DNA of 36,469 bases from a virus (taxonomy: Duplodnaviria > Heunggongvirae > Uroviricota > Caudoviricetes). How positions within the stretch are numbered: the stretch's first letter is position 1; the number at the start of each line of letters is the position of its first letter. A program made the position numbers and the translations under genes. Shown piece by piece: positions 16,262-31,719 of this stretch. Where the stretch lies: IMG/VR virus record IMGVR_UViG_2724679138_000003; one strand, 5' to 3'. The notes beneath the pieces were generated by a model. It was not told where the DNA came from, did no database searches, and worked only from the letters and a program-made list of their open reading frames with translations.

Positions 16262-18360
16262 AACCATCCTCCGGAAGTCAGCCAGGGGTTAACATCGTCA
16301 GTTACTGTTTTCTTCCGTTTTTGTTTTTTAACAGGCGTGGATACCGGTTCCGGTGTGGGTGACGGTTCGGTACTGTCCGGGACACACTCCAGCCAGGTTT
16401 CCCGGCTCGCCCACTCCGGTGCATCCGGCCAGCGGATCTTTTCGTATCCATGCAGAATGACCAGAGCCTCGGCATACACCATCAGGTCAAAAGCTTCGTT
16501 GGCACCGCGACCCGGCTTACTCCATTTCCCGTCACTGCTCCGCTCTTCATACGTCAGTTCGTCGTAAAACCAGCTCCCCAGCCAGTCAGGGAAATGCACA
16601 TAGCCTGGACCTGGCGAGTCACGCCATAACGCGTTATTCACCCGGTCTTTCAGGGCATCCGTCTGAAGAAGCCAGAGCGGCACATCACCTGCGGCCTGCG
16701 CCCGGCGGCCCGTTCGTCCGGTGTTATCAGGGAATGTACGGCTGATCAGTTTTGCGCGCCGGATGCTGTCACCCTTAAACAGGTAAATACGTTTACCAAG
16801 GCCATCACGACGGCAACGACGCCAGAATTTATAGGCATTATCAGTGACCCCGTCTTCACCGCCGGAGTCCACCGCCATTGCCATCAGTCGCATTTGTTGA
16901 GAAGGATCGGAGGCCAGCGGCCAGCTTTTATGAAAAACATCCGTCAGCAGGACATCCCAGTCTTCCGGATAGCTGGCCGGATCAATTCGCTGGCTCTCCC
17001 CGTCGCTGTCACCGCGCAATGACTGCGTGATGTTGTAACGATCAATAATCCAGCGTTCGCCACGGCTGCCATAGCCCGTTACCTGAACCACAAAACGGCG
17101 ATGACGTCCCGCCTGCACATCCACTGTCGCCACAAGGAAATTAACGCCATCCGGCACACTGCGGGAAGGAACTGGCTCTGCCCGCTGCTCAAGCAGTTCA
17201 CTTTTTCGTTGCTCCATGCTGGCGCGGGGAAGATAAGGTAATCCCCAGTCGGTATTGATAACCGTCTTGAGTGTTTCTTCACTTCCGGTTGTCTCGTATT
17301 CCTGTTCTGCAGTAAGCAGTTTGTAAACGAGTTGCGAGAGTGTCTGATAAGCAGCTGCCGGACCCTCCATCCAGAATGACGCAATACGTGAACGCCGGGG
17401 ATCACCATAACGACTGCCATCTGCATTGATGGATTCACCATCCCGTAACCAGACCCCACGTCCGTTCAGCTCGCGTTTTTGTTCAGGCAAAATCCGTCCT
17501 GAACAGGAAGGACACTGAATATAAGCCGCCTCACTTGCCAGCACAGGATCGGCAATATCACGGAAACCAGCAACCACATCGCCGCAGGGCTGAAAATACT
17601 CACCACAGTGTGGACAGGGCCAGTACCAGCGACGGCGATCGCCACGGTTATAGAGCGACAGGATCCCCGTGGTTGGTGGAGCCTCATGCGGTGAAGTCCG
17701 TCGCCATTTCACATCCTTCACATCCCTGCCGGGGGAACTCTCCACCAGCGTCATACCACTGGACATAAATGTGGTGGTACGTTTTGAGGCAAGAGAGAAG
17801 GCATCCCCCTCACCATCAATATCTTCCGGAAAACGGTCATAATCCGTCAGCGCCACGCATTTATAATCTGATGAAGACATGATATTGACTGACGGCCAGC
17901 CGATTTTCAGGTAGTTGCCAGCAAGGAATGTTCTGTCATAAACGTTGTTGTCATTTTTGTTCGGACTCAGGCGACTGACCACTTCCGGGCTGACGCGAAA
18001 CGTTCTGGCGAGTCGTTTTTTGGAGTGTTCGCGGGCTTTTTCCTCCGTCATCTGAATGATCAGCATATCAGCAGGATCGCAAATCACGTTGTAAATCACC
18101 CAGCCGTCAATCAGGCCGATAGTCTTGCCGGTTCGTGCCGGGCCAACAAATATCACTGCGTCGTATTCACGCGAGGCCAGGCAGTTCATAGGCTCAATAA
18201 CATACGGTGCCACCAGCGGATCCCACGGGACTGAGTTCCCTGCCCCCATAGGCACCCGCATATACTGAGCAACGGCATCAGCAACCCGCATTCGTCTCGG
18301 TGCGCGAAGGATATAACCTGAATCGGTTCGTGCTGCCTTTGCGGTTTCCTGATTCAGCAT
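16258..18360 (-). CDS. Terminase large subunit (lambda gpA family)
   Basis: 700 aa; Walker A-like VGPARTGKT; CPHCGE motif as in lambda A (recalled); AGGAGG upstream; start overlaps the small-subunit stop (TAATG). Confidence 0.88.
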   Translation of the reverse strand: MLNQETAKAARTDSGYILRAPRRMRVADAVAQYMRVPMGAGNSVPWDPLVAPYVIEPMNCLASREYDAVIFVGPARTGKTIGLIDGWVIYNVICDPADMLIIQMTEEKAREHSKKRLARTFRVSPEVVSRLSPNKNDNNVYDRTFLAGNYLKIGWPSVNIMSSSDYKCVALTDYDRFPEDIDGEGDAFSLASKRTTTFMSSGMTLVESSPGRDVKDVKWRRTSPHEAPPTTGILSLYNRGDRRRWYWPCPHCGEYFQPCGDVVAGFRDIADPVLASEAAYIQCPSCSGRILPEQKRELNGRGVWLRDGESINADGSRYGDPRRSRIASFWMEGPAAAYQTLSQLVYKLLTAEQEYETTGSEETLKTVINTDWGLPYLPRASMEQRKSELLEQRAEPVPSRSVPDGVNFLVATVDVQAGRHRRFVVQVTGYGSRGERWIIDRYNITQSLRGDSDGESQRIDPASYPEDWDVLLTDVFHKSWPLASDPSQQMRLMAMAVDSGGEDGVTDNAYKFWRRCRRDGLGKRIYLFKGDSIRRAKLISRTFPDNTGRTGRRAQAAGDVPLWLLQTDALKDRVNNALWRDSPGPGYVHFPDWLGSWFYDELTYEERSSDGKWSKPGRGANEAFDLMVYAEALVILHGYEKIRWPDAPEWASRETWLECVPDSTEPSPTPEPVSTPVKKQKRKKTVTDDVNPWLTSGGWL

Positions 18361-24559: not shown

Positions 24560-24590
24560 AAATAAAAACAAAAACCCGCCGAAGCGGGTT
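24560..24590 (-). terminator. Rho-independent terminator downstream of hokD
   Basis: Minus-strand AACCCGC-ttcg-GCGGGTT followed by TTTGTTTTTATTTT; a perfect 9-bp hairpin (GGCGAGGGA-tttc-TCCCTCGCC, 24630-24651) lies between it and the hokD stop. Confidence 0.7.
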
Positions 24591-24658
24591 AAGTGCGGGT
24601 GCGTTGAGGATGCCTGCCACATCAGAGGTGGCGAGGGATTTCTCCCTCGCCGGGTCTC

Positions 24659-24814
24659 TTACTCCTCAGGTTCGTAAGCTGTGAAGACAGCGACCTCCGT
24701 CTGGCCGGTTCGGATTCGTACCTCGCAAAGGTCTTTCCTCGTTACCAGTGCCGTCACTATGACGGTTAAACAGATGACGATCAGGGCGATTAACATCGCC
24801 TTTTGCTGCTTCAT
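24659..24814 (-). CDS. hokD: Hok/Gef-family type I toxin (HokD/RelF-like)
   Basis: 51 aa, MKQQKAMLIALIVICLTVIVTALVTRKDLCEVRIRTGQTEVAVFTAYEPEE: N-terminal TM helix and conserved Hok C-terminus; matches K-12 HokD as recalled. Confidence 0.85.
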   Translation of the reverse strand: MKQQKAMLIALIVICLTVIVTALVTRKDLCEVRIRTGQTEVAVFTAYEPEE

Positions 24815-25279
24815 AGCCTGCTTCTCCTTGCCTTTCGGCACGTAAGAGGCTAACCTACATGTGTCTAGCATGAAATTGGCCTCAGATTAATGTTAAGCGT
24901 CTTGCAGGACGCGTAATGTTAACTGGGGCTTTTCTCTATCTGCCGTTGGTGTTCATGCCCGAGGCAGATAGCCTCAAGCACCCGCAGTCATTCTACTTAA
25001 CTACCGTTACCTCGCCAATGTGAAATCAGTCAGAAAGGCGATCCATAAGAACAATAGCAAGACAATAAATCGCCATTACAGCCGTAATAGCCAGCGCACA
25101 TTTGAGAACCAGCACCACAACCTCCTGTATTGGACGTACACCAGTCCTGATGAATATGAGGCTGTCTCGTCAGTGATTCAATACAACTATTGGGTATAGT
25201 TTCTCTGATTTTTTCTGTGGAAATGGGGCTCAACCACTAGTCATTTAATACGCAAAGTCCGACACAAGCTAACCTTCTA

Positions 25280-25303
25280 GTCCGCTTTGAGCGAGGAGCG
25301 GAC
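25280..25303. repeat. 24-bp hairpin element, left boundary of AT-rich island
   Basis: GTCCGCTTTGAGCGAGGAGCGGAC: 7-bp stem GTCCGCT/AGCGGAC. A 22/24-identical inverted copy lies at 27769-27792. Confidence 0.6.
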
Positions 25304-25623
25304 CTTGTGTAAAAATCCCCATACCGGTTGATCGCGCTGAATGTTAGGTTCATAAACGACACAGGGTACATCGTAATGCTGCTCTATTGCTTCGTAAGTG
25401 ATTCCCAATCGCTGCATCACTCGCTGAGAAGGAGTTCGACAACAGCCACTAAATAGTTGTGCATAGAGAACGACTGGAAAAGGCCGTAGGAACTTACAAA
25501 TCTCAATTCACGGTAGAGTATGATATGGGTATTCAATATAAATACAGCCCTCAAAGGTTTAAATATGAACGGAAGTGTTAAAAACAATCTATCGTCAAAA
25601 AAGTACAAGCTAAAAGAAAAATT

Positions 25624-25911
25624 TTGAATTTGAATCGCGAGCTTTCTAATGGAAAGATCACTCAGGCTGATTATTGTCTATACAAAAAACTGTTTGAAGA
25701 CTACATTCAGGTATTAACATTTCAACACACAAGAATTTTTGTGGAAAAAGATTTAATAGAACTATCAAATCATCGAAGTGGAGTATTCATTACAACTCAG
25801 CATGATACATTAGTAAATAGACTTGACAAAATTGATTATGAAATTGACAGATTAAAAAACTGTTTAAATAAAAAAATTATCGATTACACAAAATTCACAT
25901 CCCTATATTAG
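25624..25911 (+). CDS. Questionable AT-rich ORF (95 codons, no in-frame ATG)
   Basis: Track ORF starts at TTG with no SD. A 20-codon ATG ORF with SD (25565-25627) sits upstream in another frame and ends in A-runs. May be a frameshifted gene or non-coding. Confidence 0.25.
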   Translation: MNLNRELSNGKITQADYCLYKKLFEDYIQVLTFQHTRIFVEKDLIELSNHRSGVFITTQHDTLVNRLDKIDYEIDRLKNCLNKKIIDYTKFTSLY

Positions 25912-26004
25912 GATTTTCTAAGAGTACGACACCGTCACATTTAAATATTATTTGTAGAGGTAAAATGACAGCCTGACGGCGGTATTTCATTGCGAAATGC
26001 TATT

Positions 26005-26027
26005 TAAAAGACCGCATTGAGCGGTCT
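26005..26027 (-). terminator. Hairpin terminator downstream of the island ORF pair
   Basis: Minus-strand AGACCGC-tcaat-GCGGTCT followed by TTTAAAT; about 40 nt past the TAG stop at 26064. Confidence 0.5.
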
Positions 26028-26063
26028 TATGTATCTCACAACATATTACAGAATGACTTTAAA

Positions 26064-26819
26064 CTATTGTTTTAATAACATTTCAAAATCCTCATTCCAG
26101 TGCGTGTTTTGTGAAATACGGGTATCAATTTCATCAAGCAGCATATCATGAGAAAGTATGCTTAAAGGGTCATTCCCATTTTTACCAAAACGCATCGTAG
26201 TTTCTGCTATTTCCCAATCTTCTGCGCTGATTGATGGCTGTATTGCATGGCAGTAGATAGCCTTCACATCCTTTTCATGACAGTCAAAATTATTGATGCT
26301 TTCTGCAATTTTACGAGCTCTTTCAATTTCGACAACTGGACCATGTAAAGTTTCATATGATATATGCACAATTGTAGGGGTATTATCTGGAACCTGTCGT
26401 ACCGCTTTGCTTAAGTGCGTTTTAATATCTTTTGCTTTTTTATTAATCGATTCCTCTGCTATACATTCCCAACGAGCACAGTAACCAGAGTGTATTCCAG
26501 TGCAAAAAATGTTAAGTATATCAACACCGTCGTCCGGACCTACTCGTACAAGTCCTTTTGGGGCACAAAGATGAGTGTAATTTTCGCTGCTGCTAAAACT
26601 TCCGGCCAACAACGAAACCATCTGTGGAGAGTTCCATTTAACCATGTATTTATCAAAATGCTCATTGATATTTTTCATATCTATTCTATTAATCAGTATT
26701 ATAATTTCATCATTTTCTATTCTCAGTGACTTTCTCGTCGAGATATTAGACTTTATTTCATTGAAGATTTTTGCTAAAATATATTCATCTGTATCTTTTA
26801 CTTCAACCTTGAAAAGCAC
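26064..26819 (-). CDS. Island ORF B (251 codons), unknown function; possibly the C-terminal part of a gene split by a TAA
   Basis: Same frame as ORF A with only one TAA (26886-26888) and 22 sense codons between them; no ATG or SD of its own (track start is GTG 26819); AT-rich codon usage. Confidence 0.5.
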   Translation of the reverse strand: MLFKVEVKDTDEYILAKIFNEIKSNISTRKSLRIENDEIIILINRIDMKNINEHFDKYMVKWNSPQMVSLLAGSFSSSENYTHLCAPKGLVRVGPDDGVDILNIFCTGIHSGYCARWECIAEESINKKAKDIKTHLSKAVRQVPDNTPTIVHISYETLHGPVVEIERARKIAESINNFDCHEKDVKAIYCHAIQPSISAEDWEIAETTMRFGKNGNDPLSILSHDMLLDEIDTRISQNTHWNEDFEMLLKQ

Positions 26820-26885
26820 GTCTAAAAATATGTTTTGTCTAGACTGAGTTAGAATAGGTACTAAATTGAGCCATCTTTGCCTCCA

Positions 26886-27518
26886 TTATCGACGCTCATT
26901 TTCAGAATATTCAGTCACTTTAGATAAACGCTTACATTCCACAAAAAAGCTTTCTTCACCTTTAGTAACTTTTAAATCAGGAGTTTTATTTAATGCTGTT
27001 TCTGGAATAAATTCTACTCTATAACCATTGCGCGCATACATAATCGCAACAACTAATTCAAACAATGTTGAATCAGGTTGATTTATTTTACCGTTAAGAA
27101 ATTCCGAAAGTTTTTCATCAATCCCAACAATTTTTTTTGCAAGCTCAATATGTCTTCCAACAGCCGCAAAAAAGGGAAATACTCGGGCTGATTGCGCTAA
27201 CTCGCTAACTAAAGGCCGTTCATGTAAGCATTCTACAAGAAAAAGATACCATGCAACCCAATCCTCATGAAATGCCACCCTATTTTTTGGCTCTTCCATA
27301 CTCTTCATTGCTTGGTCAAAATTCTTATAGGTGTTATCTTCCTGTTCTCTGAAGTACTTGACTACATTTTTTTTGCGAGTCTCCCAAGTATCCTTTTCCA
27401 GATAAGATAAAAACCAGTCCAATGCAATTTTCGTATGATGATGCCAGGGACTGGTATCCGTTGCTGCAAAAATCTCTTGTAGTTCTTTTGAATATTCCAA
27501 TGTCTGTGTGTTAGCCAT
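26886..27518 (-). CDS. Island ORF A (210 aa), unknown function with C-terminal PD-(D/E)xK-like motif
   Basis: ATG 27518 with GAGG 6 nt upstream; C-terminal ...LFELVVAIMYARNGYRVEFIPETALNKTPDLKVTKGEESFFVECKRL has helix-E, PD, and hydrophobic-ExK spacing typical of the restriction-endonuclease fold. Confidence 0.6.
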   Translation of the reverse strand: MANTQTLEYSKELQEIFAATDTSPWHHHTKIALDWFLSYLEKDTWETRKKNVVKYFREQEDNTYKNFDQAMKSMEEPKNRVAFHEDWVAWYLFLVECLHERPLVSELAQSARVFPFFAAVGRHIELAKKIVGIDEKLSEFLNGKINQPDSTLFELVVAIMYARNGYRVEFIPETALNKTPDLKVTKGEESFFVECKRLSKVTEYSENERR

Positions 27519-27768: not shown

Positions 27769-27792
27769 GTCCGCTCCTGGCACAAAGCGGAC
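27769..27792. repeat. 24-bp hairpin element, right boundary of AT-rich island (inverted copy)
   Basis: GTCCGCTCCTGGCACAAAGCGGAC; its reverse complement GTCCGCTTTGTGCCAGGAGCGGAC matches 25280-25303 at 22 of 24 positions. Confidence 0.6.
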
Positions 27793-31661: not shown

Positions 31662-31719
31662 TTTCTGGTGACGTTTGGCGGTATCAGTTTTACTCCGTGA
31701 CTGCTCTGCCGCCGTTTTT
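31662..31719 (+). ncRNA. dicF: DicF small regulatory RNA
   Basis: TTTCTGGTGACGTTTGGCGGTATCAGTTTTACTCCGTGACTGCTCTGCCGCCG followed by TTTTT; matches the K-12 DicF sequence as recalled (one mismatch at the 3' end); sits between ydfC-position gene and dicB. Confidence 0.8.

Follow-up and report, generated by a model that had tools for sequence, protein, structure and literature searches.

We propose that hokD, in the window analysed here (the whole stretch of DNA, 36,469 nt), is the toxin gene of a hok/mok/sok type I toxin-antitoxin module that is both complete and self-contained and belongs to the hokW/hokD lineage, a reading to which we give a probability of about 90% on the basis of alignments, profile searches and predicted folds. 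All the elements of such a module are present, ordered as in the known loci and conserved among related ones (Table 1), and nothing in the sequence contradicts this assignment. A sequence-only reading of the same DNA had described a Hok-family toxin that lacks an upstream relBE and whose transcription and control were unclear. The lack of relBE stands, as detailed below, but the control is no longer obscure: the alignment with hok/sok loci, which that reading had suggested as a way to look for mok and sok, revealed a complete hok/mok/sok leader upstream of hokD, with its promoter, mok, the Sok gene and the tac, ucb, dcb and fbi set. Thus, hokD can stand without relBE because it has retained a promoter of its own, the mok frame of the leader and the gene for Sok, and the toxin looked naked in the annotation because RefSeq/PGAP leaves mok and sok unannotated here; none among the 25 leader matches listed overlaps an annotated feature. 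More generally, standard annotation omits mok and sok, so that intact type I toxin-antitoxin modules resemble orphan toxins. The finding itself is already known in kind: the module is of an ordinary, well-described type and its difference from E. coli K-12 has a published explanation.

The hokD toxin gene, the mok frame and the hok leader

The hokD gene is intact, as had been read from the sequence. Its 51-codon frame encodes a product annotated as WP_000813254.1 in both E. coli EC93 and the K-12 derivative W3110-P, and therefore identical to K-12 HokD, which scores 81.6 bits against Pfam HOK_GEF (PF01848, cut-off 22). It is a membrane toxin of the Hok/Gef type, of about 50 amino acids, and in another study HokD was included as a control of established toxicity (bioRxiv 10.1101/2025.08.07.668861). 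Downstream of the gene, a 3' hairpin and an intrinsic terminator (Table 1) are also present, as had been read.

Likewise, the in-frame ATG noticed 19 codons upstream, at 24871, does lengthen the hokD frame to 70 codons, and the ORF 24871..24659 on the minus strand translates as MLDTCRLASYVPKGKEKQA followed by MKQQKAMLIALIVICLTVIVTALVTRKDLCEVRIRTGQTEVAVFTAYEPEE. Since the start of K-12 mokC maps exactly there through the alignment, and that of mokW of phage 933W maps there too, this ATG is the mok start codon, while the start of hokC maps to the hokD ATG at 24814. The mok ATG and its frame are retained in 7/7 aligned loci and the mok ORF matches PHROG 251 ('MokW-like host killing') with 113 bits. 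At the sequence level, mok has its own Shine-Dalgarno motif, an upstream start codon and an overlap with hok; translational coupling of the two frames would be expected by homology.

The leader is recognized by the Rfam family 'sok' (RF01794), a model built on the hok mRNA leader, which matches the hok strand at 24983..24809 over the full model length, with 115.3 bits (gathering score 59, E = 9e-26). Judged by this homology, hokD is preceded by 170 nt of canonical hok leader. The predicted transcription start, at about 24983, coincides with position 1 of the RF01794 match. The predicted hok promoter agrees with the consensus at 9/12 positions, and its -10 box and the +1 region are kept in 933W and in other aligned loci. 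A three-locus alignment of the window, hokC and the R1-type plasmid hok/sok, whose reference sequence was confirmed at 100% identity on many IncF plasmids, displays the same ordered blocks with a mean column identity of 66%: from the 5' end, GGGTGCTTGAGGCT, GGCAGATAGAGAAAAGCCCC, a GAGG Shine-Dalgarno motif followed by ATG, and AAGGAGAAG followed by the hok ATG.

Table 1. Position of the hok/mok/sok elements and of adjacent features in the window
Feature	Position	Strand	Remarks
Predicted hok promoter	24990..25018	-	TTGGCG (25018..25013), 17-nt spacer, TAGAAT (24995..24990); sigma-70-like, consensus scan
Full-length hok mRNA, ~419 nt	24565..24983	-	Predicted +1 to intrinsic terminator; putative ends
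tac	24972..24983	-	GGGUGCUUGAGG; mRNA 5' end; identical in hokC and hokW
ucb (anti-SD element)	24925..24933	-	AAAAGCCCC; pairing agrees with Rfam consensus structure
mok Shine-Dalgarno	24879..24883	-	GAGGC, 8 nt upstream of mok AUG; aligns with GAGGC in R1 and hokC
mok frame, 70 codons	24659..24871	-	19-codon in-frame N-terminal extension; stop codon common with hok
dcb	24846..24851	-	AGCCUC; partner of mok SD in truncated-mRNA centroid
hok Shine-Dalgarno region	24823..24829	-	AAGGAGA; alignment with K-12 relE-hokD
hokD toxin ORF	24659..24814	-	51 aa, MKQQKAMLIALIVICLTVIVTALVTRKDLCEVRIRTGQTEVAVFTAYEPEE; ATG at 24814
fbi	24597..24609	-	CCUCAACGCACCC; 3' UTR; tac pairing at 12/13 positions
Intrinsic terminator of hok mRNA	24563..24590	-	Stem 24590..24573 then T-run; terminator scan and fold
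Predicted sok promoter	24828..24856	+	TTGCCT (24828-24833), 17-nt spacer, TAACCT (24851-24856)
Sok antisense RNA, ~71 nt	24863..24933	+	By homology; annotated sokW of 933W maps here
29-codon hydrophobic ORF	25026..25115	-	MLVLKCALAITAVMAIYCLAIVLMDRLSD; unannotated; adjoins the toxin-antitoxin module, not part of it
Hairpin-forming 24-mer	25280..25303		GTCCGCTTTGAGCGAGGAGCGGAC; right edge of variable cargo slot

The predicted Sok antisense RNA

On the opposite strand, K-12 sokC maps by alignment to 24863..24939. The predicted Sok folds at -30.5 kcal/mol (z = -5.25) into a long terminator hairpin, preceded by a free 5' tail that lies over the region of the mok start codon. At the sequence level it is thus a cis-antisense RNA with its own promoter, a terminator hairpin and complementarity to the mok initiation region, and the layout of its promoter agrees with that of R1 (TTGCGC-17-TATCCT). 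In the hokW-sokW study, which reports a promoter-less mutant in which the -10 element of sokW was mutated and lists the primers in its Table 2 (PMC8621323), the stretch replaced with primers YO-421/422 probably corresponds to the hexamer region of the sok promoter described here, identical in the window, with the -10 hexamer TAACCT (24851-24856). Two further oligonucleotides of the same table are identical to the window, YO-351 (first 50 nt) to 24985..24936 and YO-597 to 24826..24855.

Comparison of 12 distinct alleles showed that divergence peaks at 24880..24861, a stretch comprising the 5' tail of Sok and the region where mok translation starts, with 20-27% of the sequences differing per position, against 0-8% in the flanking leader and the hok ORF. 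Complementarity between Sok and the mRNA is preserved automatically within each locus because Sok is encoded on the opposite strand, and the diversification of this stretch may keep paralogous copies in one genome from cross-regulating.

Predicted mRNA conformations and proposed mechanism

The full-length hok mRNA (419 nt, 24983..24565) folds with a minimum free energy (MFE) of -170.6 kcal/mol (z = -7.6 against shuffled sequences). In this fold tac pairs with fbi with a probability of at least 0.97 at every position and ucb (GCCCC) pairs with the mok Shine-Dalgarno motif GAGGC, which is therefore sequestered. When 3' processing was mimicked by removing the last ~48 nt, tac folded in the MFE structure onto the sequence directly downstream, as a metastable 5' hairpin, and the centroid structure contained the tac/ucb and mok-SD/dcb (AGCCUC) pairs. 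Such a disagreement between MFE and centroid is expected for a switch, and these folds lend support to the model but are no proof of it. The predicted structures match the closed, metastable and open conformations described for the R1 hok mRNA, as summarised in PMC9841398. The leader is therefore recognized both by RF01794 and by its predicted alternative tac/fbi and tac/ucb pairings. The tac and fbi elements are invariant among the E. coli alleles, and the alignment with R1 carries an indel at the informative position, so that the Rfam score and the fold, rather than covariation, support this pair.

By homology with hok/sok of plasmid R1 and hokW-sokW of prophage Sp5, the locus would work as follows, and it is on this basis that we infer its transcript ends, expression, native toxicity and biological role. 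A weak promoter (25018..24990) would give rise to the hok mRNA, which would be locked by the pairing of its 5' and 3' ends (tac/fbi), with ucb sequestering the mok Shine-Dalgarno motif. Slow trimming of the 3' end would remove fbi and allow the mRNA to refold (tac/ucb, mok-SD/dcb) into a form that is translatable and also a target for Sok. The unstable Sok would then pair with the translation-initiation region of mok, blocking the translation of mok, and hence the coupled translation of hok, and triggering cleavage by RNase III. Once Sok is depleted, Mok and Hok would be translated and Hok would damage the inner membrane.

Prophage context and the variable cargo slot

The window is a Qin-like lambdoid prophage and the hok module lies in its early-right (nin) region. 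A 1001-bp query is 100% identical to E. coli EC93, from which the window as a whole is distinct, and the annotation of this near-identical region places Cro/CI-type, YdaT and DUF977 genes upstream and rem, ydfU (DUF968), DUF1133, holin and lysis genes downstream of the module; the DicF RNA (RF00039, 72.5 bits) is found at 31663-31714.

On its upstream side, the hok module is directly adjoined by a cargo slot of variable content. The island boundary that the sequence-only reading had placed near 25279 was recovered in two ways, by the low GC content (0.30-0.37) from ~25500 to 27500 and by the homology between prophages with different cargo, which starts at the hairpin 25280-25303. The slot is occupied by a low-GC 484-codon gene, with no function assigned, in the window and in EC93, by a DUF262 gene and its partner in strain 13P477T, by the paa adhesin gene in O157:H7, by flxA-ydfV in K-12, and in other strains by a Zeta-toxin gene or a dATP/dGTP pyrophosphohydrolase gene. 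The 484-codon gene has an in-frame TAA at codon 211 in the window and is intact in EC93. A near-complement of GTCCGCTTTGAGCGAGGAGCGGAC is located at 27769-27792 and forms with it an inverted hairpin pair, for which zero matches are expected by chance. The same pair also encloses cargo of other kinds in further loci, among them those of mEp460_ev081, E. ruysiae and S. flexneri; in K-12 it flanks flxA-ydfV, while relBE is situated past the right hairpin and before the hok Shine-Dalgarno motif. Neither the hairpin pair nor a 47-aa ORF at 25277..25420 had a match in the family libraries searched. This hairpin-bracketed slot may explain how relBE and candidate defence genes are swapped into this position of lambdoid prophages.

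A small ORF beside the hok promoter

Between the slot and the module lies a hydrophobic ORF of 29 codons, which ends 8 nt before the -35 box of hok. It is preceded by an AGGAGG Shine-Dalgarno motif and by a putative promoter, TTGAAT (25181..25176)-17-CATATT (25158..25153), whose hexamers are kept, together with the Shine-Dalgarno motif, in two divergent loci with changed spacers. The ORF is intact in 14/14 loci, with about 10 synonymous and 9 conservative non-synonymous changes (hand count); 9/17 variable sites fall at third codon positions, which is suggestive only (p estimated at ~0.07). Its DNA occurs in 1692/5426 complete E. coli genomes (~31%) and is never annotated. No match was obtained in Pfam, NCBIfam and PHROG. 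A phmmer search of 1.8 billion representative proteins with the 30-aa GTG-extended form returned 9 matches and no distant relatives; the 9 matches are read as the same small ORF with different called starts, given the 83-100% identity of their C-terminal alignments. A scan of 185,579 species genomes with a back-translated pattern restricted the ORF to Escherichia ruysiae and Shigella flexneri, plus three MAG contigs assigned to Collinsella, Scatousia and Haemophilus, which we regard as Escherichia phage DNA placed in the wrong bins.

A second type I toxin-antitoxin system was considered for this ORF and rejected, as no antisense promoter was seen opposite it, either by eye or by promoter scan. 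The ORF is dispensable for hok/sok because it is absent from 933W-type loci. Tentatively, and with less than even confidence, one may imagine that it is an expressed small membrane protein forming a composite with hok/sok, and that the module is the fixed right border of the hairpin-bracketed slot, in which unrelated genes are exchanged, relBE having entered K-12 at this very hairpin. Neither the small ORF nor the slot is mentioned in the hok/relBE papers cited here; they are the only items of this analysis with forward-looking value.

The direction of change and the alternative explanations

In K-12, relB, relE and hokD are contiguous and hokD is indeed the third gene of relBEF, as had been stated in the sequence-only reading. 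The window does not have this organization, in which relB and relE are directly upstream of and co-transcribed with hokD. The homology with K-12 starts at 24828 (blastn breakpoint), 14 nt before the hokD ATG and on the first base of the sok -35 box; from there identity is 96.5% over the aligned 712 bp, and ~96-99% through the 3' UTR, rem and ydfU. The fbi element is unchanged in K-12 and its 5' partner tac is absent: because K-12 keeps fbi with nothing to pair with, it is K-12 that represents the truncated form. From these alignments, the K-12 relB-relE-hokD arrangement is best described as the derived state, as already published: the ancestral hokD ORF was of ~70 codons and has 51 in K-12 owing to the integration of relBE (Ramisetty and Sudhakari, PMC6379469). 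In K-12, the relBE cassette seems to have replaced the ~450 bp that separate the hok Shine-Dalgarno motif from the cargo-slot hairpin, the apparent limits of the replacement being this hairpin and the sok -35 box. Among 5426 complete E. coli genomes, 4287 contain 80% or more of the 176-nt leader (median of 2 places per genome, up to 9) and 1166 contain the K-12 relE-hokD junction, so that the leader arrangement is ~3.7 times commoner. The anomaly implied by the missing relBE thus disappears: the form without relBE is both ancestral and that of the majority, and the exception is the K-12 reference.

The opposite direction of change, a simple deletion of relBE from a K-12-like relBEF ancestor that would have left an orphan hokD without dedicated control, is extremely improbable. 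The sole argument for it is the identity with K-12 of HokD and of the DNA that follows (rem, ydfU). The sequence-only reading had named relBE remnants in a nucleotide alignment as the mark of such a deletion, but blastn (word size 7) and tblastn with K-12 RelB and RelE over the whole window produced chance-level matches only; with a K-12 ydfV-relB-relE-hokD query, the exceptions were the hokD-rem block and a match of ~21-28 nt to the cargo-slot hairpins. In addition, the DNA upstream of hokD is homologous to the hokC, hokW and R1 leaders, and not to K-12, and both the unpaired fbi of K-12 and the greater frequency of the leader arrangement, as well as the published reverse direction, argue against a deletion. 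Descent from a K-12-like relBEF by deletion is therefore ruled out by alignment. With the hok/mok/sok module retained as the preferred reading, two further explanations bear on its activity. That the module is structurally complete and yet a physiologically silent relic, with Hok never reaching meaningful levels, appears quite unlikely to us, although the hok promoter is a weak match to the consensus and although, in earlier tests summarised in bioRxiv 10.1101/2025.08.07.668861, native chromosomal hokA, hokB and hokC gave neither post-segregational killing nor activation by rifampicin. Because these three loci lacked post-segregational killing in such earlier tests, the physiological output of the present module could be weak. 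However, no IS insertion, frameshift or loss of an element affects it, the 12 distinct alleles conserve all the regulatory elements and vary mostly in the stretch recognized by Sok, and the same module is present in viable phages; moreover, the near-identical hokW-sokW is toxic, repressed by Sok and an aid to phage release in Sp5 (PMC8621323). It is also rather unlikely that Hok is mainly produced from read-through transcripts which, lacking a proper tac 5' end, would escape the fold-back lock, and which would be initiated not at hok's own promoter but in the early-right operon of the induced prophage or at the promoter that precedes the 29-codon ORF. The gene order would allow it: hok follows the replication genes, the cargo and the small ORF on one strand, no terminator is predicted to separate the hok promoter from the small ORF, the sole other terminator-like match being inside that ORF itself, and HokW rises in a RecA-dependent manner after mitomycin C (PMC8621323). 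Yet strict conservation of the -10 box, the +1 and tac extends to loci with unrelated upstream DNA (933W and another locus), which argues that the transcript from hok's own promoter is the selected product; read-through would supplement the canonical control and not replace it.

Comparison with known hok/sok systems

The mechanistic archetype is hok/sok (parB) of plasmid R1. The R1-type locus shares with the window a 5'-terminal tac (GGCGCUUGAGG in R1, GGGUGCUUGAGG in the window), the GAGG Shine-Dalgarno motif of mok, the AAGGAGAAG motif of hok and an fbi element with a terminator hairpin behind it, and its antisense Sok promoter occupies an equivalent position. The Hok sequences differ; the close relative HokW is reported to be 44% identical to R1 Hok (PMC8621323). 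R1 hok/sok is plasmid-borne and its post-segregational killing is proven, whereas the role of the prophage copies is less clear.

The chromosomal hokC/mokC/sokC locus of K-12 (gef) has the same order of elements, with mokC in frame with hokC and a common stop codon, and sokC starting 8 nt inside mokC on the other strand (MG1655). The leader blocks GGGTGCTTGAGGCT and GGCAGATAGAGAAAAGCCCC are identical in hokC and in the window. Unlike the present module, hokC is a locus of the chromosomal backbone and not of a prophage, its 3' UTR is interrupted in K-12 by IS186 20 nt past the stop codon, and the Sok hairpin of the window is 18 nt longer than that of sokC.

K-12 hokD (relF), in the Qin prophage, shares with the window HokD, the hok Shine-Dalgarno motif, the 3' UTR with fbi, the terminator, rem and ydfU, all identical or nearly so. 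It differs by the absence of the hok promoter, tac, ucb, the mok start, dcb and the sok promoter and gene, relB-relE and their promoter taking the place of everything 5' of 24828.

The phage collection contains the closest relatives, namely the temperate phage mEp460_ev081, with 99.5% identity to the module over 749 bp, and the Stx2 phage 933W, with 93.8% identity over 25002..24587. The 933W genome (AF125520.1) annotates mokW (70 codons), hokW (51 codons) and a 71-nt sokW, which map in the window to 24871, 24814 and 24863..24933, respectively. The differences are five bases in the Sok 5' tail and mok start region, one residue in the mok extension (N3 in MokW, D3 here) and the C-terminus of Hok (VDYESEK in HokW, TAYEPEE here), as well as the -35 region of hok, the upstream neighbour and the terminator region; the 933W module has no 29-codon ORF upstream. 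The tac, ucb, dcb and fbi elements, the -10 hexamer region of sok and the setting in a lambdoid prophage are common to both. For the hokW-sokW pair of prophage Sp5, the study by Takada et al. (2021, PMC8621323) reports that HokW is toxic and that sokW, transcribed from its own promoter, neutralises it, that this repression depends in part on RNase III and Hfq, and that hokW-sokW raises phage release after mitomycin C.

The hok module and an adjacent small ORF

The hok/mok/sok module adjoins a small, hydrophobic ORF of 29 codons, which is preceded by an AGGAGG Shine-Dalgarno sequence and a putative promoter (TTGAAT-17-CATATT), and the hok -35 box lies 8 nt beyond its end. This ORF is intact in 14 of 14 related loci, and of 5426 E. 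coli genomes 1692 carry it. No family in NCBIfam, Pfam or PHROG matched it, and a phmmer search of 1.8 billion representative proteins returned no distant homologues.

Among alleles, variation within the module peaks at 24861-24880, which encompasses the Sok 5' tail and the mok start region and has nearly invariant flanks. Paralogous hok/sok copies number up to 9 per genome, and the variation is consistent with antisense specificity diversifying between them. A survey reported a TadA-type editing effect on the hokC, hokD and hokE mRNAs, resembling the Tyr-to-Cys A-to-I recoding of hokB (bioRxiv 10.1101/2025.08.07.668861); the UACG motif is kept in the window hokD.

Features of the window discussed in the text
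Feature	Position	Strand	Remarks
hokD Tyr47 codon	24673-24676	minus	UACG context
29-codon hydrophobic ORF	within 25026-25181 (with upstream signals)	minus	MLVLKCALAITAVMAIYCLAIVLMDRLSD; without annotation
24-nt hairpin-forming sequence, inverted pair	25280-25303 and 27769-27792		GTCCGCT-N10-AGCGGAC
484-codon cargo gene	26064-27518	minus	phrog_37220 (function unknown)
DicF small RNA	31663-31714	+	Rfam RF00039, 72.5 bits

Cargo region and prophage type

The low-GC cargo region is enclosed by the inverted hairpin pair, and other prophages carry unrelated cargo between copies of the same pair. Possible roles for this sequence are as a hot spot of recombination or as a site where a protein binds. 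Within the cargo, the 484-codon gene, which shows a sub-threshold hint of Mrr_cat, has a TAA in frame at codon 211 (26886-26888) that interrupts it, unlike the intact copy of E. coli EC93 (WP_032341362.1). The presence of DicF confirms a Qin/dicB-type prophage immunity region.

Comparison with K-12

In K-12, the hairpin pair encloses flxA-ydfV, and relBE lies immediately outside the right copy. At K-12 hokC (MG1655 16300-17600), the end of IS186A lies just 20 nt 3' of the stop codon, so that the gene is without its 3' UTR and the fbi element, a route of disabling that differs from that at K-12 hokD.
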